A DNA stretch of 64,000 nt, from contig JAPLME010000010.1 in NCBI GenBank assembly GCA_026387175.1, forward strand, positions 138,490-202,489. The letters are read 5' to 3'. The position numbers and the translations under genes were made by a program. This document shows positions 1-57,070 of this stretch, one piece after another; within the stretch, counting starts at the first letter, position 1; each line of letters begins with the position of its first letter. The notes beneath the pieces are model-generated. The model did not search any database and was not told the DNA's origin. It saw only the letters and a program-made list of their open reading frames with translations. The stretch comes from Candidatus Omnitrophota bacterium (GTDB lineage Bacteria > Omnitrophota > Gorgyraeia > 2-01-FULL-45-10).

Positions 1-324
1 CCTTTGATCGATATACCCAAACTCGCGGCAATAGCCCAAAATATGGTCAAGACAGCTATAGATTCATTCGTAAAGAGCGATATCGAATTGGCCAGGCAGG
101 TCCTTCTCTCCGATCCCGAAGCGGATCGGCTCCGTAACGAGATACAGAAGGAGCTGGTTGAGGGATATCTGTCAAAAGACGGCTCCACGGCTCCGAGGGC
201 GGTACAGCTTCTATTGATAGCGCGCTTCCTGGAGAGGATATGCGACCATACGACCAATATCGCCGAGGATGTGATATATCTGGTCCAGGCTGAAGTGATG
301 AGGCACCATCCGGAGAAATTATAG
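1..324 (+). CDS. phoU: PhoU-family phosphate transport regulator, C-terminal part (5-prime end lies outside the window)
   Basis: Reading frame is open from nt 1. PhoU-like helical repeat with the conserved acidic/His motif (ERICDHTTNIAEDV). Stop at 322-324. Confidence 0.7.
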   Translation, partial: PLIDIPKLAAIAQNMVKTAIDSFVKSDIELARQVLLSDPEADRLRNEIQKELVEGYLSKDGSTAPRAVQLLLIARFLERICDHTTNIAEDVIYLVQAEVMRHHPEKL

Positions 325-813
325 ATGGTAAATAAGCCGGTGATGATCGTGATATCGAGGTTCTTAAAGGCCGTATATCTCAAGATATTCAGGATAAATG
401 ACACTCCGCAAAAGATAGCGTTGGGCCTGGGGTTGGGCGTATTTATGGGGGTCCTTCCGGGCACCGGCCCGATCGCGGCGCTGGCTCTCGCTCTTCTATT
501 CAGGGTAAACCGCGCTAGCGCTCTATTAGGAAGCATACTCACCAATACCTGGCTGAGCATACCCGTATTCCTGTTATCCCTGCGAACCGGCGCTGTTATC
601 ACCGGCGTAAGCTATCAGGCGCTTAAGAATGACTGGTCCCTCCTGATAAAAGATTTTCACTGGGCAACTCTCCTGGACCTGGGGGTGTATAAAATTTTAA
701 TGCCCATCCTTGCCGGATATGCGCTGATCTCCCTATCTATAGGAATAATCGCTTACGCCCTGACGCTTATTGTAGTAGTATACGGCAGGCGTAAAAAGAT
801 CAAAATCATTTAA
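325..813 (+). CDS. DUF2062-family small membrane protein
   Basis: Start abuts the phoU stop. Gly/Pro-rich GLGLGVFMGVLPGTGP motif followed by TM helices, typical of DUF2062 proteins that follow phoU. Confidence 0.55.
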   Translation: MVNKPVMIVISRFLKAVYLKIFRINDTPQKIALGLGLGVFMGVLPGTGPIAALALALLFRVNRASALLGSILTNTWLSIPVFLLSLRTGAVITGVSYQALKNDWSLLIKDFHWATLLDLGVYKILMPILAGYALISLSIGIIAYALTLIVVVYGRRKKIKII

Positions 814-1041
814 ATATTATGTATCTTATTGCGGTAAAGCGTGATACAATGTTTAATATGAAAACGATCAGAACTTCATCCAGGAGAAGGAAATGCAGGG
901 TCCGTCAGTGCGAACAGATATTGAGCATTTATAATCATGAGGTCTATTGCCATGCCCATCTGAAGGGCATGAGCTTTCAGACCGCCCTTTCGCACCCCGT
1001 CGTCTGCAGCAGTAAATAAGAATAGAAATAGAAATTAATAT

Positions 1042-1085
1042 AAAAAAACAGAGCAGGTTTACGCCTGCTCTGTTTTTCTGTTTTT
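1042..1085. terminator. Bidirectional Rho-independent terminator
   Basis: Hairpin CAGAGCAGG-tttacg-CCTGCTCTG (1049-1072) flanked by an A-run upstream and a T-run downstream. Lies 3-prime of the minus-strand csp gene and of the plus-strand upstream genes. Confidence 0.8.
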
Positions 1086-1104
1086 TGCCGCTATATTACA
1101 GCAA

Positions 1105-1897: not shown

Positions 1898-4060
1898 ATG
1901 AAAAAGCTAATAGCGATCTTGATATGCCTTGCAATTGTGGTGTTGGTAGGAATGCCGGCTTTTGCCGCGAACAGTAGTGACATTGTGAAGAAACAGCAAA
2001 CGTCGATTGTGAAGGTAGCGCCGGATATAAAATTGCAGGGTGCTAAAATTGGAGTTAAAGGTGCTATCATCACACCGATCAAGAGTATCGATCCTTACGC
2101 TGTGGCAACACAGTATCTTGCCAGTATGGTAAATCCCGATTCATACAAACTTGTAGGCACAAAACCTATGGGTACAGATACTATCATGTATGTATTCAAA
2201 ATCCCGAATGGTTCCGTAATTAATGTGTATGTAAATAAACTTACGTTTAAAGCATCAATAGATCAACGTATACAGGATGCATTGACCGCTGCCCGGGCGA
2301 ACGCTGCACTCCATACGGGCGTGGAAATAGGAACGGTCCATGTAAATGGGATAGAAGATGTTTCCAATAATCTCGCAGGTATCGCATACCGTATATCATT
2401 AAGGGTTAATAATTTTGACATAGCATTTATGTACTCACAGAAATCCCTTACCACGCATATGCAGCCCTTATCCATTGTGGATCGGACTACCGGTGTCGAT
2501 GTTCTCAAGAAGGCCGTTGATTACCTATCGGGATTCTTGAATCCAAGTGATTTTCCGATAGCTAGCTGGGCAGTTTCTACTAGCGGCAACATATCTTTCA
2601 AATTCGCGCTCAATCGGGAACAGTTTTATAAACCGGACTATATAATACTGGTAACGGTTAATTCGGTTACCGGTGTTGTTAGCACAACGTTCCCAAAACT
2701 CAAGGAATGGGTTATGTCCGCAAACGAAATGATGAAAGAATATTTTAACGCTGAGACAGTGCATATTGTCGATATGATTAACGTTGATGGCATTGCGGCG
2801 GATGGAGCGCCTCTTTTTTATATTGGCTACTCAATTATGGGAAAAGAGATCGGCTTCCATGTTAACCGGGATACCGGTGTAGCATACTTTGGAACGATGG
2901 GCGACTGGCGCTGCGCCACCATTGTCCTCGAAACAAGACAGAACGTAGCGTCGCACATGGGCTTGGATGATATAGGAAAAGTGTATACAAATGATTTCGC
3001 GATCCTGTATGCCGCCTCCTATGAAGTCGTGATGAGCTTGACGTTCAGGGTCGATAATTACACGATTAAAATGCAATATGATTATCACTATGCCGGGCTG
3101 CCGGGCTGGCAAGGTATCTCCTTGAGGTCCTTCATTGATAATAACACGGGAAGAGATTATGTGGAAAAGGCTAGAGAGCAATTAGGCAATCTGTTTAATA
3201 TAAAGTGGGGCGATTCATCCAAATTTATGGTAAAAGACTGGATTATAAAGGATGGCGAGCTTCAACTTAATATTTTTGACAGCACGATCAGCAGCGATAT
3301 TATTATGTCAGTAACCGTTAACTTAAGCACAGGGTATATTGCGATTGATCGGACTATGGTTGATTTAGTGATGGCGGTGCGTAACGATGTATCTAAGAAG
3401 CTAAGTACGGATATCGCGGACGTGCACATAAACTTCATACAATATAAATATGAAGGCAAGGCTGGCGGGTGGAACACAAACATATATTGCTTTAATATTA
3501 GCACGTCGCAGTTTACCCTTAAATATGAATACAACAGAGAAACCAGCGTTACAAAGCTGGCTTCCTGCAAAAACAACGCTAACGGTATAGACCTGTATGC
3601 TAATGCCGTCAATTATTTGCATCAAAACTACGGCGAAGATCCGAATCTTACAAATTGGAACATCGAGAAGAATGGTGCAAGTGTACTTTTCGACTTCAAG
3701 TTGGCCAACGGCGAAACAATAAAAATAAGGGTTGTCATAGGAACTGGTGAACCCCAGCTTATACGTTCTCCCGGACCTTATCTTAACCAGGATAAGCTGA
3801 CTATTAATTCGCCGCTGAGTACGAAGAATCCTGATTCGCCTCAAAGCCCATCGGCGCCAATCGGGCCCTACCTCAATTCGTCTCCCGGGCCGACCGCATC
3901 AGCTCCGACTGTAACGCTTCAACCGAATAATACAGAAATTAGCCAGCAGAAAACTTTAGAAACTCAAATTGAGCTAAAAGGGAATGGGGAGAATTACACA
4001 GTCTCCGGGCAGATGGCAAGTGCGCCGAAGGGAGCTATTCCAGTTCAGAAAAAGCAGTAA
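1898..4060 (+). CDS. Secreted hypothetical protein (720 aa) with a Pro/Ser-rich low-complexity C-terminal region
   Basis: N-terminal signal peptide MKKLIAILICLAIVVLVGMPAFA. GGGG RBS-like run upstream (GGGGATAATAAAATG). No recognisable catalytic motif. PDSPQSPSAPIGP...SSPGPTASAPT linker near the C-terminus. Confidence 0.7.
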   Translation: MKKLIAILICLAIVVLVGMPAFAANSSDIVKKQQTSIVKVAPDIKLQGAKIGVKGAIITPIKSIDPYAVATQYLASMVNPDSYKLVGTKPMGTDTIMYVFKIPNGSVINVYVNKLTFKASIDQRIQDALTAARANAALHTGVEIGTVHVNGIEDVSNNLAGIAYRISLRVNNFDIAFMYSQKSLTTHMQPLSIVDRTTGVDVLKKAVDYLSGFLNPSDFPIASWAVSTSGNISFKFALNREQFYKPDYIILVTVNSVTGVVSTTFPKLKEWVMSANEMMKEYFNAETVHIVDMINVDGIAADGAPLFYIGYSIMGKEIGFHVNRDTGVAYFGTMGDWRCATIVLETRQNVASHMGLDDIGKVYTNDFAILYAASYEVVMSLTFRVDNYTIKMQYDYHYAGLPGWQGISLRSFIDNNTGRDYVEKAREQLGNLFNIKWGDSSKFMVKDWIIKDGELQLNIFDSTISSDIIMSVTVNLSTGYIAIDRTMVDLVMAVRNDVSKKLSTDIADVHINFIQYKYEGKAGGWNTNIYCFNISTSQFTLKYEYNRETSVTKLASCKNNANGIDLYANAVNYLHQNYGEDPNLTNWNIEKNGASVLFDFKLANGETIKIRVVIGTGEPQLIRSPGPYLNQDKLTINSPLSTKNPDSPQSPSAPIGPYLNSSPGPTASAPTVTLQPNNTEISQQKTLETQIELKGNGENYTVSGQMASAPKGAIPVQKKQ

Positions 4061-4273: not shown

Positions 4274-4348
4274 GCGGCGGTAATTCAGTGGTAGAATGCG
4301 ACCTTGCCAAGGTCGATGTCGAGGGTTCGAACCCCTTCCGCCGCTCCA
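4274..4348 (+). tRNA. tRNA-Gly (anticodon GCC)
   Basis: Acceptor GCGGCGG/CCGCCGC, anticodon stem CGACC/GGTCG with loop TTGCCAA, T-arm GAGGG-TTCGAAC-CCCTT, discriminator T, CCA. Confidence 0.8.
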
Positions 4349-4412
4349 TTTTACAGCGCAGAAATTCGGTTTTGCGCTTGATATTTAAGAAAGCTAAGGA
4401 GGAAGTGCACGA

Positions 4413-4877
4413 ATGAAGATAATGGATTTTTTGAGCACAAAAGCGGTTATTGCCGATCTTAAGGCGACGGATAAAGATGGGGTAGTAAGGGAACTCGTCG
4501 ATTCTCTCGCCAAGGCAGAAAATATTAAAAATAAAGAAGAGCTTGTAAAGGCTCTGCTCACCAGAGAGTCGCTCGGCTCCACGGGAATAGGCCAGGGTAT
4601 AGGAATACCTCACGCTAAGACCCAGAGCGTTAAAAGCCTCGTCGCCGCGTTCGGGCTCTCCCGTAAGGGGGTCAGCTTCGATTCTCTCGACGGCGAGCCG
4701 GTCTATATATTCTTCCTGCTTATAGCGCCGGAAGAGTCGGCCGGCCCTCACCTGAAAGCGCTTGCCAGGATCTCCAGGATGCTTAAGGATAAGTACTTCA
4801 GGGAGCTTCTTAAGAAATCAAAAGACGAAAAAGATATACTTCGCATAATCCAGGAAGAAGATTCCAAGAAGTATTAA
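4413..4877 (+). CDS. ptsN: PTS EIIA(Ntr)-type nitrogen regulatory protein (PTS IIA type 2)
   Basis: 154 aa. Active-site His in GIGIPHAK and the typical LAPEE..HL motif. AAGGAGG RBS upstream. Confidence 0.85.
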   Translation: MKIMDFLSTKAVIADLKATDKDGVVRELVDSLAKAENIKNKEELVKALLTRESLGSTGIGQGIGIPHAKTQSVKSLVAAFGLSRKGVSFDSLDGEPVYIFFLLIAPEESAGPHLKALARISRMLKDKYFRELLKKSKDEKDILRIIQEEDSKKY

Positions 4878-15923: not shown

Positions 15924-16709
15924 ATGGATCAATATACTCACTTACAATTACGGGAAGTTTTTCATCTTGAATTCCTGAGATGGTTTGGCAGGAAGGTAAA
16001 GGCGGGAGATTATGCTGTTAAGGGAGGCGTGAATTTGCGCCTCTTCTTTAAAAGCTTCCGTTACTCCGAGGATATGGATCTGGATGCGCGCGGTGTCAAA
16101 GTTATTGAGCTCAAAGAGATAGTGATGAAGATACTTAACGCTTCCGCGTTTCAAAATAATCTGAAACCGTTCGGCATAATGAGTATAATGCCGCCGGATA
16201 TCCGCAAAGCAAAACAGACCGAAACGACGCAGCGTTTTAAGATACACCTTATCGCGTCTTCAGGGGAGGACCTCTTTACAAAGGTTGAGTTTTCTCGAAG
16301 AGGCTTTGCCGGAAAAATTGTTACAGGGGCGGTTGACGATGCTATTTTGCGAACTTATAAGCTGGCGCCATTACTGGTACCGCATTATGACGTGCGCTCC
16401 GCTATCGCGCAAAAGATGAGTGCCCTTGCCGATAGAACAGCTGTACAAGCAAGAGACATTTTCGATATTTACCTTCTCAGCTCTCAATATATCGCCGGCG
16501 CCGGGGCATGGATCGACAATATTAAGTTCGGCGTCCTTTCGAAAGCGTATGAACGTGTCTTTGAAGTCGAATTTGAACAGTTCAGGGATACCGTGGTCTC
16601 ATATCTATCCGTCGAAGACCAGCCGGTGTATGATAACCCGCAAACATGGGAAGAGATTCGGCTGAAAGTCGCTCATTTTATCGAAGAGGTGCGCAAGTCC
16701 TATGCGTAG
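15924..16709 (+). CDS. AbiEii/AbiGii-family nucleotidyltransferase toxin (type IV TA system)
   Basis: VKGGVNLRLFFKSFRYSEDMDLD matches the AbiEii N-terminal hallmark (KGGTaLrL..g..RfSeDiDf). 261 aa. Confidence 0.8.
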   Translation: MDQYTHLQLREVFHLEFLRWFGRKVKAGDYAVKGGVNLRLFFKSFRYSEDMDLDARGVKVIELKEIVMKILNASAFQNNLKPFGIMSIMPPDIRKAKQTETTQRFKIHLIASSGEDLFTKVEFSRRGFAGKIVTGAVDDAILRTYKLAPLLVPHYDVRSAIAQKMSALADRTAVQARDIFDIYLLSSQYIAGAGAWIDNIKFGVLSKAYERVFEVEFEQFRDTVVSYLSVEDQPVYDNPQTWEEIRLKVAHFIEEVRKSYA

Positions 16710-17449: not shown

Positions 17450-19171
17450 ATGAAGACCACCCGCCTTATAATATTACTGGTAATGACGCTACTTTTAGCG
17501 CCGCCGCGAGCTTTCGCCCAGCCGCCCAATCCTAGCCAGGAGATCGGCGGTATCCAGAGGACTCGCGAGATGGAAGAGAGGGCGAAGAAATTAACATCGG
17601 AAGTTCAAGCGAAGAAACAGAAGCCTAAGATAGAAGAAGAGAAATTACCGTCCGAAATAGCTCCGGCCCTCCCCAACGAAAAGATCCTGATCAAGAATGT
17701 AGTGGTTATCGGTGCCACGCTGATACCGGAAAAAGACATCAGGGCCATAGTCGATCCTTTCGAAAATAAAGAGCTTTCTATTGCGGAGATGCAGAAGGCG
17801 GTGGACCTGATAACGGATGCCTACCGCAAAAAAGGGTATATAACGTCGCGCGCTTATATCCCTCCCCAGAAGATCGAAAATAACAGGTTTGAGATAAGGG
17901 TCATCGAGGGAAAGATGGGAGATCTCGACGTAACGGGTAACCGCTACTATAAGAACTTTCTCTTTAAAAAAAAATTCCTGCTGAAAAAGGGCGAGGCCTT
18001 TAACTACTATGTCCTCGCCAGGACCCTGCGCAAGATAAATGAGCAGCCGGACAGGTTCGCAAAGGCGGTCCTGGTTCCCGGTAAAGAGCCTGGCGCCACG
18101 GATGTCGTGCTGGAAGTGAAAGACGACCTGCCCGCTCATGCGGGAGTTAATTACGACAATTACGGCTCGCGCTACATCCTGAACGACCGCTATCAGTTCA
18201 ACGTTTCACACAATAATCTTTTGGGTTTCGAGGACCTGTTTCAATTCCAGTATACTATGACGCAGGCTGAGACGTATCGTCTTATAGGCGGAAGCTACGT
18301 TCTCCCGCTGACAGAGAAACTTAAAGTGGGATTCTCCGCTCTCTGGGCAAAACTGCATCTATTGAATGACTATAAGCCGCTCGATGTGCGCGGCAAGAGC
18401 GAGCTATACAGCATCTTCGCCACGCAATCTATCCTGGATGAAGAAAAATACAGCGTGAATTTGAATGCCGGATTCGATATAAAAGACGTCTTTAACTTTC
18501 AAAACGACCAGGAGACGAGCCGCGACAGGATGCGCGTAGCTAAGATAGGAATAGACGCCGATCTCACCGATCCGCTCGGGCGAAGTATATTTACAAACGG
18601 AGTAGAGATAGGCATACCGGGCTTCATGGGCGGCCTTAAATACAAGGACCCGCGAGCTTCCACTGTCGGTTCAGGCGGCGAGTTTGTAAAGTATGTTATG
18701 AACTTTTACCGGTTACAGCCGATGCCGTTCGAATCATCGATCCTTTTCAAAAACCAACTGCAGGTTTCGAACAAGCCGCTTACGTCTACTGAACAGTTTC
18801 AGATAGGCGGCATCATCAATACGAGGGGGTATCCTCCGGCTGAACTCGTAGGCGATCAGGGTTTTTCCAGCACGACCGAGTGGTCCTTCCCGGTATATTT
18901 ACTGCCTAAAGACGCGAAGATCCCGTCGACGCAGATCAATTGGTATGATACCGTAAGATTTGTCACTTTTTATGATTACGGCAACGTCCGCTTAAGAAAA
19001 CCGGGAGGCAACGCGAGTAAATTCGGCCAATTAAGCGATTTCGGATGGGGAATCAGATTTAACCTGCCGAAACATTTTTCTTTCAAAGTGGATTTCGCCT
19101 ATCCCATTGATAAAGGCGCTTCCGATGGCAAAACTAACCGCACCTGGATGCAGATCTCGTCGAATTTTTAA
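17450..19171 (+). CDS. Two-partner secretion outer-membrane transporter (TpsB; ShlB/FhaC/HecB family)
   Basis: Signal peptide, POTRA region (ITSRAYIPPQKIENNRFEIRVIEGKMGDLDVTGN) and a C-terminal beta-barrel ending in an aromatic residue. Confidence 0.85.
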   Translation: MKTTRLIILLVMTLLLAPPRAFAQPPNPSQEIGGIQRTREMEERAKKLTSEVQAKKQKPKIEEEKLPSEIAPALPNEKILIKNVVVIGATLIPEKDIRAIVDPFENKELSIAEMQKAVDLITDAYRKKGYITSRAYIPPQKIENNRFEIRVIEGKMGDLDVTGNRYYKNFLFKKKFLLKKGEAFNYYVLARTLRKINEQPDRFAKAVLVPGKEPGATDVVLEVKDDLPAHAGVNYDNYGSRYILNDRYQFNVSHNNLLGFEDLFQFQYTMTQAETYRLIGGSYVLPLTEKLKVGFSALWAKLHLLNDYKPLDVRGKSELYSIFATQSILDEEKYSVNLNAGFDIKDVFNFQNDQETSRDRMRVAKIGIDADLTDPLGRSIFTNGVEIGIPGFMGGLKYKDPRASTVGSGGEFVKYVMNFYRLQPMPFESSILFKNQLQVSNKPLTSTEQFQIGGIINTRGYPPAELVGDQGFSSTTEWSFPVYLLPKDAKIPSTQINWYDTVRFVTFYDYGNVRLRKPGGNASKFGQLSDFGWGIRFNLPKHFSFKVDFAYPIDKGASDGKTNRTWMQISSNF

Positions 19172-28854: not shown

Positions 28855-29488
28855 AGTACTGGAGATCGAAGCCCTGGAAAGGATGAATAGCGGCAGATTC
28901 CTTGAACCGCTGGTATTTGGCGGCGGCACAATGCTCAGGCTGTGTTACGAGCTGAACAGGTACTCTGTAGATCTCGACTTTTGGTTTGTGAAAAAGACCG
29001 ACCCTGAATTATATTTTACTAAATTAAAAAAATACCTTGCCGAACAATATGAATTGACCGACGCCTGGATAAAACATTATACGATTTTGCTGGAGTTGCG
29101 CGCCAAAGGCTATCCCAAAAGGCTTAAACTTGAAATACGCAAAGAGGTAAAAAAGTGCGATTTTGAGGAGCGGATAGCGTTCTCTACCTTTAGCTCAAAG
29201 CAGGTTATCTTAAAGGTCATGTCTTTAGAGCAGATGATGAAGAATAAGATCGAGGCGGCTTTGGAGCGCCATGAGATAAGGGATTTCTATGACATAGAGT
29301 TTTTACTCAGAAAGGGGATAGCGCTAAAAGCGTCCCGGGAAGATTTAAATGGGTTATTGCGCGTGTCAAACAGGTTTAAAGAAAGCGACTTCAGGGTTGC
29401 CCTAGGTTCACTGGTAAAGAAGGATGTCAGGGAATATTACATAACACACAAGTTCACTTATCTGCAGGAAAAGATAGCCGCCTCCTAG
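28832..29488 (+). CDS. AbiEii-family nucleotidyltransferase toxin (second copy)
   Basis: FGGGTMLRLCYELNRYSVDLDF hallmark motif. Overlaps the antitoxin gene by 23 nt. Confidence 0.8.
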   Translation: MDTFERHEVLEIEALERMNSGRFLEPLVFGGGTMLRLCYELNRYSVDLDFWFVKKTDPELYFTKLKKYLAEQYELTDAWIKHYTILLELRAKGYPKRLKLEIRKEVKKCDFEERIAFSTFSSKQVILKVMSLEQMMKNKIEAALERHEIRDFYDIEFLLRKGIALKASREDLNGLLRVSNRFKESDFRVALGSLVKKDVREYYITHKFTYLQEKIAAS

Positions 29489-51734: not shown

Positions 51735-53393
51735 ATGGCATATATAGTCTTCGCGCGTAAATACAGGCCCAGGAATTTTGAAGAGATAACCGGCCAATCC
51801 CACATAACTACCACATTAAAAAACGCTATAGAGCAGTCCAGGGTCGCCCACGCCTATTTGTTCGCGGGTCCCCGAGGCGTGGGCAAGACCACTACCGCCA
51901 GGATACTGGCGAAGGCCCTTAATTGCGAGAAAGGGCCCACCACGAAGCCGTGCAATAAATGCGCGTCATGCCAGGAGATAACGTCGGGTTCGAGCCTAGA
52001 CATATTAGAGATAGACGGCGCTTCAAACCGGGGCATCGACGAGATACGGAGCCTCAGGGAGAACGCTAAGTTCATGCCGTCCAAGGGCGCCTTCAAGATC
52101 TATATTATAGACGAGGTCCATATGCTCTCGAACGAGGCGTTTAACGCGCTTCTGAAGACGCTGGAGGAGCCTCCGCCGCATGTGAAGTTCATATTCGCGA
52201 CGACTCATGCCCATAAGGTGCCGCCCACGATACTTTCGAGATGCCAGAGATTTGACTTCAGGCGCATCCCTACCAAGGATATTCTCGCGAATTTAAAAAA
52301 GATAACGAAAGAAGAGAAACTCGCTGTAGACGATGAAGCTCTGGGCCTGATCGCTAAATACGGCGACGGCAGTATGCGTGACGCCCAGGTCATTCTGGAC
52401 CAGATAGCGTCGTTTACCAAAGAGAAGGTGGGCGCGAGCGATGTGACCAAAATACTGGGGGTAGTCGACGACGAGATATTATTCGCTCTCTCCGGAGCCA
52501 TCCATAACAAGGACCCGAAGACGGCTTTAAAAATAATAGACGGGCTTGTTAATGGCGGCAAAGACGTCATGCAGGCCGTAGTGGGGCTGATAGAGCATTT
52601 CCGGAACATATCGATCGCGAAAGTGGCGAAGGAGCTCGATTCGCTGATCGACGCCGGAAGCGATAAGATAGAGCGTTACCGGGAAGAATCCGCGAAATTC
52701 ACGATAGAAGAGATGCTGTACATAATATACACATTATCTAACGCGATAGATTTTATGCGCAAGACCGATATGGCGAGAATACCGTTTGAAGCCGCGCTAG
52801 TTAAGCTTACTCTGAACGGCGGCATCGTGCCGCTTGCCGATATAATGAAAAGAATAGAAGCTCTCGAAGGTAAAACCACGGCCCACCAGGCGAGTATAGA
52901 GAGTGCGCATGTTGAGCCCGAAACAGAAGAATCCCGTCCCCGGATCGTCCCGCGGCAATCAGGCAGCCTCGATGAGATATTGAGCTCCTGGATGAAGGTC
53001 ATAAGTTATATAAAAGCTAAAAAGATTTCGATCGCGTCATACCTTCAGGAAGGGGATCCGATAGCGCTTGAAGGTAATACGCTCACTATCGGTTTCGCCA
53101 AAGAATTTCAATTTCATAAAGAGGTGCTGGAGTCTTCCGACAATAAGAAAACTATCGAGACTGCCATAAAAGATATGCTCGGCCTGGAACTGAGAGTTCT
53201 CCTTATTGTAACGGAGCCGGTCACAACCAGGGATCGTTCCTCCAATGAAGGCGCCCGGAGCGCGGATGATTCAGGACCCGGAAATGAAACGGCGGGTGAA
53301 GCGGCAATCGAAGAGACCGACCCGATAGTGAAGAAGGCGATAGAGATGTTCGGCGGCAAACTGGCCGGCGCTAACGGCAGGGGAAAGGCCTGA
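51735..53393 (+). CDS. dnaX: DNA polymerase III subunit gamma/tau
   Basis: Walker A GPRGVGKTT, zinc module CNKCASCQEI, Walker B IIDEVHML, sensor motifs. Confidence 0.9.
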   Translation: MAYIVFARKYRPRNFEEITGQSHITTTLKNAIEQSRVAHAYLFAGPRGVGKTTTARILAKALNCEKGPTTKPCNKCASCQEITSGSSLDILEIDGASNRGIDEIRSLRENAKFMPSKGAFKIYIIDEVHMLSNEAFNALLKTLEEPPPHVKFIFATTHAHKVPPTILSRCQRFDFRRIPTKDILANLKKITKEEKLAVDDEALGLIAKYGDGSMRDAQVILDQIASFTKEKVGASDVTKILGVVDDEILFALSGAIHNKDPKTALKIIDGLVNGGKDVMQAVVGLIEHFRNISIAKVAKELDSLIDAGSDKIERYREESAKFTIEEMLYIIYTLSNAIDFMRKTDMARIPFEAALVKLTLNGGIVPLADIMKRIEALEGKTTAHQASIESAHVEPETEESRPRIVPRQSGSLDEILSSWMKVISYIKAKKISIASYLQEGDPIALEGNTLTIGFAKEFQFHKEVLESSDNKKTIETAIKDMLGLELRVLLIVTEPVTTRDRSSNEGARSADDSGPGNETAGEAAIEETDPIVKKAIEMFGGKLAGANGRGKA

Positions 53394-53998
53394 TGAGCGG
53401 TTTCCCTGTTTCGATGCGTTCCCTGATAGAAGAGCTGTCCAAGATGCCGGGCATCGGGCCGAAGAGCGCCCAGCGCCTGGCTTTCTACATATTAAGATCT
53501 TCGAAAGAAGACGCCGCCGCGTTATCCGGCGCTATATTAAAGGTAAAGGACTCGGTAAGGTTTTGCAGGATCTGCAATAATCTAAGCGATGAGGAGATCT
53601 GCGAGATATGTAAGAGCAGCTCGCGGAATAAGGCGCTTTTATGCATAGTGGAAGAGCCCAATGATATCGTTACCATAGAGCGCGCGGGAGATTTTAACGG
53701 AGTTTATCATGTGCTATTGGGCTCGTTGTCGCCGCTAGATGGCATAGGCCCCTCCGACCTTAAAATAAAAGAGCTTTTGGACAGGGTAAAGAAAGAGAAG
53801 TTCAAAGAGATAATAATAGCTACTGATTTCAATACAGAGGGCGAGGCCACGGCCCTCTATCTGATAAAAGCGTTGAAAGGTTCAGGCGCCAGTATCACCA
53901 GGGTAGCCTATGGCATCCCTGTCGGCGGTGACCTGCAATACGCGGACCAGGCTACGATAATAAAGGCATTTGAGGGCCGCCGCGAGATCAAGGTATAA
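53393..53998 (+). CDS. recR: Recombination protein RecR
   Basis: HhH (LPGIGPKSAQRLAF), C4 zinc finger (CRICNN...CEIC), Toprim domain. ATGA overlap with dnaX; no ybaB between them. Confidence 0.9.
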   Translation: MSGFPVSMRSLIEELSKMPGIGPKSAQRLAFYILRSSKEDAAALSGAILKVKDSVRFCRICNNLSDEEICEICKSSSRNKALLCIVEEPNDIVTIERAGDFNGVYHVLLGSLSPLDGIGPSDLKIKELLDRVKKEKFKEIIIATDFNTEGEATALYLIKALKGSGASITRVAYGIPVGGDLQYADQATIIKAFEGRREIKV

Positions 53999-54005
53999 AT
54001 AGCAG

Positions 54006-54034
54006 TTGACTTCCGAAACTTTATTTGGTATATT
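54006..54034 (+). promoter_or_regulatory. Sigma70-like promoter
   Basis: TTGACT-17 nt-TATATT. Confidence 0.55.
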
Positions 54035-54052
54035 CTTAAAGCTTGTCTAAAA

Positions 54053-54158
54053 GGCCGATGTCAGAGACATCGGCACCTGGCTTGTAATACGGCTGAATAA
54101 ACTTGGCCGATATCAGAGATATCGGCACTTAGCCTACAATAGGGCTGAATAAACTTGG
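54053..54158 (+). repeat. Two tandem 53-nt repeats, each with a 9-bp-stem hairpin, in the 5-prime UTR
   Basis: Unit 1 is 54053-54105 (GCCGATGTC-aga-GACATCGGC...GGCTGAATAAACTTG). Unit 2 is 54106-54158 (GCCGATATC-aga-GATATCGGC...GGCTGAATAAACTTGG). Stem differences are compensatory (G-C to A-T). Unit 2 ends at the GGAGGG RBS. Confidence 0.8.
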
Positions 54159-54167
54159 AGGGTCATT

Positions 54168-54965
54168 ATGGGTATTATGGAAGCAATTAAGAAGGGTTTT
54201 GGTGTCGCATCCAAGGGATTGAGCCTGATAGTAGCGTTATTTGTCTTTAATTTTGTAAGTAATCTGGTAACTCTGCCGTTTACGCCCGCACCCGGCGCGA
54301 CAGCGGCGCCTCAAGCTGCCCTGCCTCTTTTAGCGATCAGTTTAATATTTATCATCATCAGCATATTTATCCAGGGAGGCGCTCTTGGCCTTATCAGAGA
54401 TATTATAAAGGAAGGCAAGATAAAGCTGGCTGCCATGGCTCAGTATGGAACCAAATATTTCATTCGTCTTCTTCTCCTTGGGGCTATAATATTGCTATTT
54501 GTAATAATAGTAGCATTGATAGCAGGGATTATTATAGCTGTTACCGCTCCGCTGAATAACGCGGTAATAACCGCAGTAGCGATAGTGGTGGCGATAGGGA
54601 TCGCCGTTGTAACGGCTTTATACTTCTTCATTCCGTTCATTCTTTCGCCGTACGCTGTCGTCTGCGATGATACCGGCGTGATAGAGGCGCTAAAGAAGAG
54701 CATCGCGATAGGCAGGACGCCATTCTCAAGAGTTTTCGCGCTATTGGCCCTGACGGTAGTATTGGTCCTGATCGCGCTGGGTGTAGGATTCCTTGTAGGA
54801 CTGGTGGTCGGATTGATATCGGCGGCGCTTCCCGTGATGGCTGGAAGGATATTGATGATATTAGTATCAAGCATTATAAATAGTTATCTTGGCGTTGTGG
54901 CTACAGCGGCTTTTATGCTGTATTATCTTTCTAAAAAAGAAAGCATTCCTCAAGGCATTAAATAG
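54168..54965 (+). CDS. Hypothetical multi-pass membrane protein
   Basis: 265 aa, 6-7 hydrophobic helices, Ala/Ile/Val-rich. Confidence 0.55.
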   Translation: MGIMEAIKKGFGVASKGLSLIVALFVFNFVSNLVTLPFTPAPGATAAPQAALPLLAISLIFIIISIFIQGGALGLIRDIIKEGKIKLAAMAQYGTKYFIRLLLLGAIILLFVIIVALIAGIIIAVTAPLNNAVITAVAIVVAIGIAVVTALYFFIPFILSPYAVVCDDTGVIEALKKSIAIGRTPFSRVFALLALTVVLVLIALGVGFLVGLVVGLISAALPVMAGRILMILVSSIINSYLGVVATAAFMLYYLSKKESIPQGIK

Positions 54966-54970
54966 TAAAG

Positions 54971-55549
54971 ATGAAAGATCTTATAGAAATTCGCTGGCAT
55001 GGTAGGGGCGGCCAGGGGGCAAAAACGGCCGCCCTCTTGCTTGCCGACGCGGCTCTCGCGTCAGGCAAATATATACAGGCTTTTCCAGAGTATGGCCCCG
55101 AAAGGATGGGGGCTCCTGTGGCCTCATTTAACAGGATCTCATCCGAGCCGATACGTCTGCACTCCGGCGTCACTAATCCGGACATCGTAATAGTGCTCGA
55201 TCCCACGCTTATGGACAGCGTCGATGTCACGGAAGGTATGCCATCCGATGGAACCCTGCTTGTGAATATCGATAAATCCCCGGCTGAAGTCAAGAGCTTC
55301 TTCGATATCGCTTCCGGAATAAAGATATGCACGGTAGACGCTTCCGGTATCTCCACGGATACCATAGGAAGGGATATCCCGAACACCCCTATGCTGGGCG
55401 CGCTTGTGAAGGCGACCGGCATTTTGGATTTTAAAGAGATGATCGCGGACACGAAGAAGAAGCTCGAGAAAAAGTTCAGGACGAAGCCCGAGGTCATAGA
55501 TGGAAACTTAAAGGCGATAGAACGCGCTTATAACGAGGTTAAGATATAA
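54971..55549 (+). CDS. porG: Pyruvate/2-oxoacid:ferredoxin oxidoreductase gamma subunit
   Basis: IRWHGRGGQGAKTAALLLA motif. Confidence 0.85.
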   Translation: MKDLIEIRWHGRGGQGAKTAALLLADAALASGKYIQAFPEYGPERMGAPVASFNRISSEPIRLHSGVTNPDIVIVLDPTLMDSVDVTEGMPSDGTLLVNIDKSPAEVKSFFDIASGIKICTVDASGISTDTIGRDIPNTPMLGALVKATGILDFKEMIADTKKKLEKKFRTKPEVIDGNLKAIERAYNEVKI

Positions 55550-55876
55550 ATGGCGACACAGAAGAAAGTTAAAAAACCCGGCTGGAAAGAGCTTCCCGAA
55601 GGGGACCTTATAATAGGAGGAGGCACCGCTTTCGAATTCAAGACGGGCGATTGGAGATCCAGGAGGCCCGTATTCCTGAAAGATAAGTGCATACACTGCC
55701 TCACCTGCTGGGCCTATTGCCCGGATTCGGCGATAATCACGGCCGACGGCAAAGTCGTGGGATACGATTATGAGCATTGTAAGGGCTGCGGCATCTGTTA
55801 TCATGAGTGCCCTGTGAAGGGTAAGGCGATAATGATGGTGAGCGAAAAAGAAGCCAAGGCAAAAGAGAAAAAATAA
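55550..55876 (+). CDS. porD: POR delta subunit (2x[4Fe-4S] ferredoxin)
   Basis: CIHCLTCWAYCP and CKGCGICYHECP cluster motifs. Confidence 0.85.
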   Translation: MATQKKVKKPGWKELPEGDLIIGGGTAFEFKTGDWRSRRPVFLKDKCIHCLTCWAYCPDSAIITADGKVVGYDYEHCKGCGICYHECPVKGKAIMMVSEKEAKAKEKK

Positions 55877-55878
55877 TC

Positions 55879-57069
55879 ATGGCAAATTCCAATATAGTGG
55901 CGAGGACCGGCAATGAGGCGATGGCGGAAGCCATGCGCCAGATCAATCCCGATGTAGTAGCGGCATATCCGATAACGCCGGCCACCGAGGTCGTCCAGAT
56001 ATTCGCCGGCTATGTGGCGGACGGCCTGGTCGATACGGAGTTCGTCCCGGTCGAGAGCGAGCACTCGGCGATGTCGGCTTGCATAGGATCCTCTTCCGCA
56101 GGCGGCAGAACGATGACGGGTACCTCGAGCCAGGGCCTGGCGTTGATGGCGGAGATGTTGTATATAGCGGCGGGATTGAGGCTTCCTATAATCATGGCTG
56201 ATGTCAACAGGGCCCTTTCGAGCCCCATCAATATACATTGCGACCACTCCGATACGATGATGGTGAGGGATTCAGGCTGGATCCAGATATTCTCGGAAAA
56301 CTGCCAGGAGGCTTACGATAACATGCTCCAGGCCGTAAGGATTGCGGAGAAAGCCAGGCTGCCGGTGATGGTCACGACCGACGGATTTATCATAAGCCAC
56401 GGCATGGAGAGGCTGGAGATATTGTCCGATGCCGACGCCAAGTCGTTCGTAGGCGCGTATAAGCCGGAAAATTACCTTTTGAATTTCGAAAAGCTGATCA
56501 CGGTGGGCGCTCTCGACCTTCAGGACTATTATTTTGAGCATAGGAGACAGCTTGCCGAAGCGATGAAGACTTCCAAGCAAGTGATACTCGATGTAGCTAA
56601 AGAGTTCGGAACGAAGTTCGGTCGCACATACGGGTTATTCGAGCAATATAAGATGGACGGCGCCGAGATCGCTATAGTCGCCATGGGTTCCACCGCCGGG
56701 ACAGCGAAGGTTGTGATAGACGGATTGAGGAGCAAGGGCCTGAAAGCGGGGCTCATAAAGCCCAGAGTATTCAGGCCGTTCCCGAAGGAAGAGCTGGCGG
56801 ACTCGCTTAAAGGCCTGAAAGCGGTGGCCGTAATGGACAGGTCGGACGCGATGAATGCCCAGGAAGGCCCGCTCGCTGTCGAAGTAAAGGCGGCGTTATT
56901 CGACGCTTCGGCTTCATCCGGAGCCAATAAGACGGTGCTCGATTACATATACGGCCTCGGAGGCCGTGAAATAAAACCCGAGGACATAGAGCATGTATAT
57001 AACGACCTTAGCGAAGCGGCGAAGGGCAAGGCAAAACAGAAAGTAACGTACCTGGGCGTAAGGGAATAA
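55879..57069 (+). CDS. porA: POR alpha subunit
   Basis: 396 aa, typical N-terminal region of the POR alpha subunit. Confidence 0.85.
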   Translation: MANSNIVARTGNEAMAEAMRQINPDVVAAYPITPATEVVQIFAGYVADGLVDTEFVPVESEHSAMSACIGSSSAGGRTMTGTSSQGLALMAEMLYIAAGLRLPIIMADVNRALSSPINIHCDHSDTMMVRDSGWIQIFSENCQEAYDNMLQAVRIAEKARLPVMVTTDGFIISHGMERLEILSDADAKSFVGAYKPENYLLNFEKLITVGALDLQDYYFEHRRQLAEAMKTSKQVILDVAKEFGTKFGRTYGLFEQYKMDGAEIAIVAMGSTAGTAKVVIDGLRSKGLKAGLIKPRVFRPFPKEELADSLKGLKAVAVMDRSDAMNAQEGPLAVEVKAALFDASASSGANKTVLDYIYGLGGREIKPEDIEHVYNDLSEAAKGKAKQKVTYLGVRE

Positions 57070-57070
57070 T

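Follow-up and report, generated by a model that had tools for sequence, protein, structure and literature searches.

Two tandem hairpin units upstream of an Omnitrophota DUF7847 gene are probable members of a dispersed, non-autonomous repeat family with scarless filled and empty alleles

Introduction

The 64,000-nt stretch of DNA analyzed in this study (the window) comes from a Candidatus Omnitrophota bacterium and corresponds to positions 138,490–202,489 of the forward strand of contig JAPLME010000010.1 (GenBank assembly GCA_026387175.1). Within it, the genes dnaX and recR are followed by a sigma-70-like promoter, two tandem hairpin-forming repeat units, the GGAGGG Shine-Dalgarno (SD) sequence of a gene for a DUF7847 membrane protein and the genes for the subunits of a pyruvate:ferredoxin oxidoreductase (POR). 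An earlier note, made from the sequence alone, had read the two units as the 5′ untranslated region (UTR) of the DUF7847 gene and had suggested that they may act there as a protein- or small-RNA-binding site, a translational regulator or an attenuator. We consider it probable that the units are members of a dispersed, non-autonomous family of hairpin repeats whose copies are inserted or excised with precision and co-transcribed as part of the 5′ UTR, and not a regulator built for the DUF7847 gene. The evidence comes from alleles of the same locus with and without the units, from the dispersal of the family over unrelated genes, from the context in which the units lie and from covariation in their stem.

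Results

The two units upstream of the DUF7847 gene

Tandem Repeats Finder detected a single array at 54053–54158, with a period of 52, 2.0 copies, 85% matches and a score of 156. The two units within it span 54053–54156, between the promoter and the GGAGGG of the DUF7847 gene (Table 1). The earlier description of tandem units upstream of the DUF7847 and POR genes, each with a 9-bp stem and an AGA loop, was borne out except for the unit length, which had been given as 53 nt and is 52 nt by the period. The promoter proposed there (TTGACT-17-TATATT) was found as well, with a TG extension, as were the tail shared by the two units, GGCTGAATAAACTTG, which is exact over 15 nt at 54091–54105 and 54143–54157, and the passage of unit 2, whose last base is 54156, directly into the GGAGGG ribosome-binding site. 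Each unit also contains a second, weaker hairpin that had not been described before. The stems of the two units differ by a single G-C to A-T double change, and the predicted folding energies are -17.8 kcal/mol for unit 1 and -22.2 kcal/mol for unit 2 (z = -3.3 and -6.2, respectively). A degenerate form of the hairpin 21-mer, with a chance expectation of 0.02 in the window, was found at those two sites only; no further copies were recovered in the 64-kb window by pattern searches with 3 mismatches or by a covariance model run with the filters off.

The two-unit sequence recurs in four separate Logan assemblies (L008, L010, L011 and L012), and since these are independent of one another, the array in the window is not an assembly artifact. 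In the Logan data the upstream contigs all end at ...GATATCGGCACTTAGC in four samples, and the downstream contigs all begin with CACTTAGCC... within unit 2 in three (L001–L004, L008, L010–L012). Such shared contig breaks would be expected if the same k-mers recur in other genomic copies and interrupt the assembly graph there.

Filled and empty alleles

Contig L005, assembled from a different sample of the same study, aligns to the window with 0 mismatches over 1454 nt and lacks precisely the 104 bp of the array: CTAAAAGGAGGGTCATTATG. A further sequence that is 99.5% identical (L006) is also empty, and at the left junction the empty allele of L005, L006 and the orthologous locus L061 reads CTAAAAGGAGGG. 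L009 stops exactly at ...CTAAAAGG, as would be expected if the assembly graph branches between two alleles that coexist in one sample. The orthologous recR-DUF7847 loci, whose gene identity to the window ranges from 83% down to 60%, carry 0, 1 or 2 units (Table 1); the one with two units shows the same order of subtypes as the window. Two observations on individual loci are added here. The first bases of L006 (1–20) have the end of recR replaced by unrelated sequence, tttctattttggcttgacac, so that either the upstream arrangement differs or the short contig is chimeric. Positions 1440–1500 of L060 read AAAGGCCGTAAGCGGATATGATATAAGGACAAAGGAGG, with a unit-like start (AAAGGCCG) and otherwise unrelated sequence, and may represent a decayed unit remnant.

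Filled and empty sites were also paired at other genes. Upstream of infC, L026 is filled and reads ...AAAAAATAG(unit)GAGGTG, whereas L062–L066 are empty, with ...AAAATCAAGGAGGTG in L062–L064. Upstream of acpP, L027 is filled, ...AAAAACAAG(unit)GAGGGAAAATG, and L068 is empty, ...AAAACAAGGGAGGGAAAATG. At fabG, L053 has two units between the TTG and the ACA of a -35 box and one more before the SD, whereas L068 and L070 are empty at both the -35 box and the SD sites.

The head-to-tail arrangement and the presence of 0, 1 or 2 copies at the locus would suit a purely local tandem duplication, of the kind produced by slippage in variable number tandem repeats (VNTR). This explanation is hardly tenable. 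Units 1 and 2 differ at 8 of 52 positions. The closest relatives of unit 1 are found in L038 (3 differences) and L036 (4 differences), 5′ of unrelated genes in other metagenomes, while that of unit 2 is in L018 (2 differences). Because each unit is nearer to units at other loci, the two are not local duplicates of each other. Moreover, the family is dispersed, and a zero-copy allele is impossible to reach by recombination between units.

The repeat family across Omnitrophota

One scan of Joint Genome Institute (JGI) metagenome contigs was carried out with the hairpin pattern alone, in which the covarying pair was set to N, and it returned 44 stretches. Full units were present in 22 of these, where ACTTAG, the second hairpin and the AATAAACTWG tail recurred even though they lay outside the pattern; the other 22 were rejected as chance or coding palindromes lacking the rest of the unit. 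With neighboring units and orthologous loci added to the scan matches, the family amounts to 29 arrays and 42 units. The search for further copies suggested in the earlier note was thus productive in metagenomes, as opposed to the window, and the accompanying suggestion of Rfam yielded nothing: Rfam 15 gave no family for the region at its gathering threshold, and with E values of up to 10 allowed, a spurious snoR121 match was all that appeared.

An SD sequence is abutted by 23 of the 29 arrays, and wherever the downstream open reading frame (ORF) could be called its start codon lies 6–15 nt past the tail (infC, for which the start call is uncertain, is excepted, and L018 reaches the contig end). 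Five arrays are fused to a -35 box, such that the CTTG of the tail is followed by ACA or CAA and then by a good -10 hexamer. The remaining array lies antisense, flanked by an RNase H gene and the RNase P RNA. Eleven of the 29 arrays are multi-unit, all of them head-to-tail, and some arrays lie inside operons, between a stop codon and the SD. The downstream genes are unrelated and number at least 20; they include mraZ, an SPFH protein gene, infC, acpP, rpmE, rpoZ, fabG, hcp, and genes for a ferredoxin, a radical SAM enzyme, two DUF1016 nucleases and membrane or secreted proteins.

The family resolved to Omnitrophota wherever the taxonomy could be checked (the window, L053 and L026). When 160 kb of Omnitrophota loci (L058–L070) were scanned with the covariance model, units turned up in L058 and L059 only, and the approximately 150 kb from other metagenome-assembled genomes (MAGs; L062–L070) contained zero units. 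The hairpin pattern had 0 matches in viral contigs, and the array was without a match in plasmid and phage collections by distant-mode blastn. In a limited literature search, no description of interspersed repeats in Omnitrophota was found.

Two loci of the family have features of their own. In L014, a class A bacterial RNase P RNA (426–974, minus strand, 174.7 bits) is flanked on either side by arrays, at 247–300 (minus strand) and 986–1090 (plus strand). The latter is the sole antisense case; it lies 12 nt from the 5′ end of rnpB, and its reverse strand is terminator-like after the RNase H gene. In L028, near-identical modules at 3019–3230 and 4290–4490 precede two strongly diverged DUF1016/YhcG nuclease paralogs, and in each module a solo tail and a unit come before TTGACA-17-TATATT, which is followed by a leader of ~65 nt and then a hairpin with a T-run. 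The modules may be copies of a larger cassette, or else point to a small RNA or attenuator. The YhcG gene of the window (26223–27260) is without a module of the L028 type.

Anatomy and covariation of the unit

The unit is 51–52 nt long and consists of a perfect or near-perfect 9-bp hairpin, the segment ACTTAG, a weaker second hairpin and an A-rich tail, (G/T)AATAAACT(T/A)G. In the alignment consensus the stem GCCGAT...ATCGGC is preceded by G and followed by ACTTAG, and both ACTTAG and AATAAAC are nearly invariant between metagenomes. In units that match the search pattern, 19 of the 21 hairpin positions are fixed by it, so that the unbiased evidence consists of the two N positions and of units caught as neighbors. 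Among 38 units, the free N/N pair is A-U in 19, G-C in 17 and G-U in 1, with 1 mismatch. A second stem pair changes from U-A to G-C in six units (the CTCGG subfamily), in which two neighboring pairs open into an internal loop. The covariation score is 0.197, compared with 0.095 in shuffles, none of 500 shuffles reached 0.197, and in all slid controls pairing falls to about 30–42%. The compensatory change that had been noted between the two units of the window is therefore real covariation in the family. Support for hairpin 2 across the family is moderate: pairing in its helix (columns 27–31/38–42) stands at 84%, the innermost pair occurs in five types, and G-U pairs are frequent on the sense strand.

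The covariation bears on the idea that the hairpins are DNA operators, i.e., two 21-bp palindromes bound by a dimeric transcription factor or a nucleoid protein. Their perfect dyad symmetry, their in-phase spacing (52 bp is ~5 helical turns) and their overlap with the early transcribed region just 3′ of the promoter all speak for such a role, but we regard it as quite improbable. The mid-arm changes are compensatory (A-T to G-C in 17 of 38 units, T-A to G-C in 6) and hence keep pairing, not a half-site; conservation of pairing fits a hairpin in RNA or single-stranded DNA and does not fit a double-stranded half-site. In addition, the dyad is broken at two positions in one subfamily, operators would not account for the 31 nt of conserved non-palindromic sequence, and some sites lie within operons, 3′ of a stop codon and ahead of an SD.

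Three further candidates were rejected. A CRISPR array is out, as conservation extends over all of the 52-nt period in units and loci alike and leaves no unique spacers. CsrA-type GGA loops are out, as most unit loops are AGA, with GGA or AGG in some only. A sigma-54 promoter reading of GGCAC-N5 was excluded by eye, there being no conserved GC at -12.

Junctions and target choice

Neither terminal inverted repeats nor target-site duplications were found: the ends of the unit, GGCCGATRTC... and ...AATAAACTTG, are not complementary, and in five comparisons of filled and empty sites nothing was duplicated beyond a shared G or GG. All cases can be read in one register, in which ...(A/T)(A/T)G precedes GCCGAT...CT(T/A)G, or in that register moved by one G. 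The 12 nt located 5′ of the first unit are A-rich, with A in 17–25 of 31 flanks at positions -1 to -5. The 5′ flanks end in AAG, TAG, CAG or TTG before the ambiguous G, which amounts to a preference with no single fixed tetranucleotide, and in some arrays (L028, L037) the nucleotides before the unit are a literal copy of the tail.

An A-rich (A/T)(A/T)G target occurs directly 5′ of SD sequences and inside the TTG^ACA of -35 boxes. Since this target resembles the unit's own 3′ tail, each inserted unit would offer a new target, and direct tandem arrays of mixed subfamilies would result. In the mechanism that we propose, a trans-acting enzyme acting on the hairpin would mobilize the units, which would be gained and lost precisely and without a scar. 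By way of its tail, an inserted unit would give the SD its A-rich context back, or the -35 box its TTG, so that the interrupted signal survives.

Predicted effect on the transcript

Both promoter hexamers are kept in the orthologous loci L058, L059, L060 and L061. Because the units lie 3′ of this conserved promoter, they very probably form the 5′ UTR of the DUF7847 gene. From its position the promoter is predicted to start transcription at about 54041, in which case the leader would be about 25 nt long in the empty allele and about 130 nt in the filled one. By partition-function folding, the predicted probability that the SD is unpaired is 0.29 without units, 0.23 with one unit and 0.44 with two, and the predicted openness of the -20 to +15 region is about 0.5 in all three. 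The units contain no anti-SD, i.e., no conserved CCUCC, and no sense-strand terminator, i.e., no U-tract after the hairpins. Anti-SD sequestration was rejected on these grounds, given the lack of a conserved CCUCC and a predicted SD accessibility that is not lowered. With SD access not lowered and with neither an anti-SD nor a sense terminator, little effect on initiation is expected; we take the units to be probable dispensable passengers that would at most modulate mRNA stability or processing. On the minus strand, each hairpin is followed by CAAGTTTATT and is terminator-like. The near-uniform co-orientation of the units with genes may have arisen because the reverse orientation is selected against on this account.

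These data also address the possibility that the array is a gene-specific cis-regulator of the DUF7847-POR operon, such as a riboswitch, an attenuator or a tandem protein-binding leader. Its location between promoter and SD, its stable folds and the compensatory stem change are what such a regulator would be expected to have, and the 5′-UTR position put forward in the earlier note agrees with the location of the promoter. The proposal of a dedicated regulator did not withstand comparison with other loci. The same unit precedes at least 20 unrelated genes that form no coherent set, it is missing from the otherwise identical contig and from most of the orthologous loci, there is no anti-SD and no sense-strand terminator, and Rfam gave no genuine match even at E values up to 10. 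We therefore consider a gene-specific regulator very improbable.

Neighboring genes and other features of the window

The DUF7847 protein of the window is identical to the MAG protein NTY76_06110 of Candidatus Omnitrophica at NCBI, and all named homologs are from the same phylum. The POR genes, for which POR_N/PFOR_II, Fer4 and TPP_enzyme_C domains were found on an identical Logan contig, are probably co-transcribed with the DUF7847 gene. Upstream, dnaX and recR (51735–53998) overlap by 1 base, with no ybaB/EbfC-type gene between them, and the orthologous loci are alike in this respect.

Elsewhere in the window, a cluster of the defense/toxin type (15924–16709 and 26223–29488) comprises two AbiEii nucleotidyltransferase toxins, a PIN-domain protein and the YhcG PDDEXK nuclease, together with ORFs without a Pfam match. 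The ORF at 19261–25272 encodes a 2003-aa two-partner-secretion (TPS) exoprotein with a TPS domain and 10 PATR repeats; it contains a perfect 72-bp tandem duplication at 24859–25003 (2.0 copies, 100% identity), and the gene for its ShlB/FhaC-type transporter (17450–19171) lies just 5′ of it. In one Omnitrophota MAG (L065, 1614–2069), a free-standing LAGLIDADG_1 ORF of 151 aa is located between yidC and parA; it is not present in the syntenic loci L062–L064 and L066.

Table 1. Features of the array and its surroundings in the window, and orthologous recR-DUF7847 loci
Feature	Position	Strand	Evidence or remark
dnaX, 5′ of recR	51735–53393		upstream of the array
recR, upstream gene	53393–53998	+	Pfam RecR domains; synteny
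Sigma-70-like promoter TTGACT-17-(TG)GTATATT	54006–54034	+	consensus scan, 10/12 matches; TG-extended -10
Left junction	54049–54054	+	A-rich run AAAA, then GG; register ambiguous by shared G/GG
Repeat unit 1, 52 nt, GGCCGATGTC...GAATAAACTT	54053–54104	+	covariance-model match, 57.1 bits
Unit 1 hairpin 1, perfect 9-bp stem, AGA loop, GCCGATGTC-AGA-GACATCGGC	54054–54074	+	
Unit 1 weak hairpin 2, 4 bp including G-U pairs	54079–54094	+	fold
Repeat unit 2, 52 nt, GGCCGATATC...GAATAAACTT	54105–54156	+	covariance-model match, 81.9 bits
Unit 2 hairpin 1, perfect 9-bp stem, AGA loop, GCCGATATC-AGA-GATATCGGC	54106–54126	+	
Unit 2 hairpin 2, 7 bp	54129–54148	+	fold
Unit 2 tail GGCTGAATAAACTT into SD GGAGGG (54157–54162)	54143–54162	+	ATG at 54168
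DUF7847 membrane protein, 265 aa	54168–54965	+	Pfam PF25231, E = 6.9e-08
POR subunit genes gamma, delta, alpha, beta	54971–58030	+	ORFs; Pfam POR
Orthologous locus L061			gene nt identity to window 83%; 0 units
Orthologous locus L058			gene nt identity to window 81%; 1 unit
Orthologous locus L059			gene nt identity to window 80%; 2 units, subtype order as window
Orthologous locus L060			gene nt identity to window 72%; 0 units
Orthologous locus L007			gene nt identity to window 60%; 0 units

Discussion

Several families of small bacterial repeats resemble the one described here in part. Like the REP, BIME and REPIN-RAYT systems, the Omnitrophota units are short, dispersed, extragenic palindromic repeats that are plausibly transcribed and that fold as RNA or single-stranded DNA hairpins (Di Nocera et al., 2013; PMC3733652; PMC3116915; PMC3337134). 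In REPs, one end of the palindrome carries a conserved GTAG or CGTC as a tag, and most copies lie downstream of ORFs (PMC3733652). In the alignment of the Omnitrophota units, neither GTAG/CTAC nor CGTC/GACG was found beside the stem on either strand. The Omnitrophota unit also differs from the 20–40-bp imperfect palindrome of REPs in its length of 52 nt, made up of a 21-nt hairpin and a conserved non-palindromic 3′ part of 31 nt, in that its arrays are direct tandems and not inverted pairs, in that 28 of 29 arrays abut a downstream SD or -35 box, and in a copy number that seems low. The earlier note had remarked that many copies dispersed genome-wide in random contexts would point to a simple REP-like repeat; the copies are essentially dispersed as anticipated, but their contexts are not random, for almost all are co-oriented and abut an SD or a -35 box.

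Insertion sequences (IS) of the IS200/IS605 family insert 3′ of a fixed 4–5-nt target, have subterminal hairpins with neither inverted repeats nor target duplications, and excise precisely as single-stranded circles. The Omnitrophota units share with them the lack of terminal inverted repeats and duplications, a hairpin by one end, scarless empty sites and a target like their own 3′ end. They differ in that a single strong hairpin is present in 52 nt, whereas IS608-type ends require two hairpins, left and right, over roughly 100 nt, and in that the target of the Omnitrophota units is loose, an A-rich run ending in WWG. The serine-recombinase transposons of the IS607 family likewise lack inverted repeats and duplications, have GG at their termini and use an invariant GG target (Chen et al., 2018; PMC6188088). 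Insertion is scarless in both cases, and the SD-type junctions of the Omnitrophota units read GG...GG. In contrast, the five -35-type arrays have CTTG followed by ACA or CAA at the right junction, with no GG; IS607 ends bear several subterminal direct repeats where the Omnitrophota units bear a hairpin, and no serine transposase was found in the window by Pfam. An IS607-type exchange at a GG core, which fits the SD junctions, was rejected because it fails at the -35 junctions.

The pneumococcal BOX (boxA-boxB(n)-boxC), RUP and SPRITE elements and the Correia elements of Neisseria are strongly structured small interspersed repeats that are co-transcribed with genes next to them; they are judged parasitic, although they can change expression or generate promoters (Croucher et al., 2011; PMC3049150). 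The variable tandem copy number of boxB, which differs between strains, has its counterpart in the Omnitrophota arrays. BOX, RUP and Correia elements, however, have terminal inverted repeats, target duplications and a link to IS of the DDE type, whereas the Omnitrophota family has neither inverted repeats nor duplications, and its targeting to SD and -35 sequences is much tighter. A classical DDE-derived miniature inverted-repeat transposable element (MITE) was rejected for the same lack of terminal inverted repeats and duplications, even though the insertion polymorphism between close strains does hold (L005).

The MIRU-VNTR of mycobacteria are direct tandem units of ~50 bp in intergenic positions that are operon-oriented and polymorphic between strains, some of them lying between a stop codon and the next start codon; all of these traits are found in the Omnitrophota arrays. 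MIRUs have no dyad symmetry and contain short ORFs that couple translation. The Omnitrophota units, in contrast, have dyad symmetry and carry stops in all three frames (TAA, TAG and TAG in frames 1, 2 and 3 of unit 2), and their length of 52 is not a multiple of 3. Finally, the TAACTGA heptamers of Beggiatoaceae and cyanobacteria are lineage-restricted, occur in the forward orientation a few nucleotides from the start codons of unrelated genes, show whole-repeat indels between strains and have been proposed to be post-transcriptional binding sites (MacGregor, 2015; PMC4679880). Those heptamers are 7 nt long, unstructured and replace the SD, whereas the Omnitrophota units are 52 nt long, structured and keep a canonical SD. 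The family thus agrees in full with none of the compared families, yet behaves as a small non-autonomous interspersed repeat.

Which enzyme would move the units can be proposed by analogy. Because scarless empty sites, the lack of inverted repeats and duplications, a terminal hairpin and a sequence-directed target match the hallmarks of HUH enzymes, our tentative preference is for a single-strand-DNA HUH (Y1) transposase of the IS200/IS605 or RAYT type, a candidate that we regard as possible, not as probable.

The rival that deserves the most discussion is a modular 5′-UTR RNA element selected by the host, for example a platform for a global post-transcriptional factor, an mRNA stabilizer or a ribosome standby site, which would stand before many, often highly expressed, genes and whose mobility would be incidental. 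On this account one would understand why 27 of the 29 arrays point in the same direction as the SD or promoter downstream of them, why the SD is always preceded by an unstructured, A-rich stretch of the tail, why ACTTAG and AATAAAC are near-invariant across metagenomes despite lying outside the search pattern, and why the G-U pairs of hairpin 2 suit the sense strand. The units are, furthermore, better conserved than the adjoining promoter flank, and many targets are housekeeping genes (infC, rpmE, rpoZ, acpP, fabG). Against it, the array is dispensable in an otherwise identical strain; the orthologous infC, acpP, fabG and rpoZ sites of close relatives are without units; five arrays are 5′ of a -35 box, and hence outside the downstream 5′ UTR, while one is antisense; and the number of units varies from 0 to 3 with no pattern with respect to gene function. 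Taken together, we regard a host-selected RNA element as unlikely.

The precisely inserting or excising repeat family, which we favor, has to be weighed against several observations that count against it. The conserved unpaired segments, the near-uniform orientation and the adjacency to SD sequences fit a host-selected RNA function equally well. Copy number per genome looks modest, with one cluster in the 64-kb window and at least three on an 830-kb contig. Pfam searches of 56 of the 57 called ORFs revealed no transposase or recombinase in the window, Y1_Tnp included, and an IS608 TnpA query gave nothing significant by tblastn against 553 kb, which is a weak test. The order of the two units (GATGTC type, then GATATC type) is also found in L059, where the gene is only 80% identical; the array is therefore perhaps old, and the empty alleles are perhaps repeated precise losses, the filled ones then not being gains. 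Between L058 and L059, 1 of 52 unit positions differs, compared with 9 of 57 flank positions, a contrast that suggests either strong constraint or recent spread or re-insertion.

For annotation, the pair of units in the window should be treated as a copy pair of a lineage-wide repeat and not as a riboswitch-like leader of the POR genes. The repeat family would account for breaks of Omnitrophota assemblies at the sites of units, and its covariance model could serve to mask or annotate units in MAGs. The family unites traits that are seldom combined: direct arrays of mixed subfamilies, neither inverted repeats nor duplications, scarless alleles that occur in a single population, and a near-exclusive placement at ribosome-binding sites and -35 boxes with restoration of the signal. 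Omnitrophota are an uncultivated phylum of mostly ultra-small cells, and targeting of SD and -35 sequences with restoration of the signal appears to be undescribed. Going further, one can envisage, more speculatively than the repeat family itself and as less likely than not, an active non-autonomous element that homes to mimics of its own tail, and thereby lands directly 5′ of SD sequences or between the TTG and ACA of -35 boxes, and that rebuilds the SD or -35 signal, and so serves as a natural plug-in module, in the 5′ UTR or upstream of the promoter, able to retune any Omnitrophota gene; it might be driven by an uncharacterized hairpin-recognizing recombinase, or the host might have domesticated it to serve a global RNA-binding factor as a platform. 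If active, the family would provide a compact model for hairpin-guided, target-mimicking transposition and would be a source of natural variation in expression.

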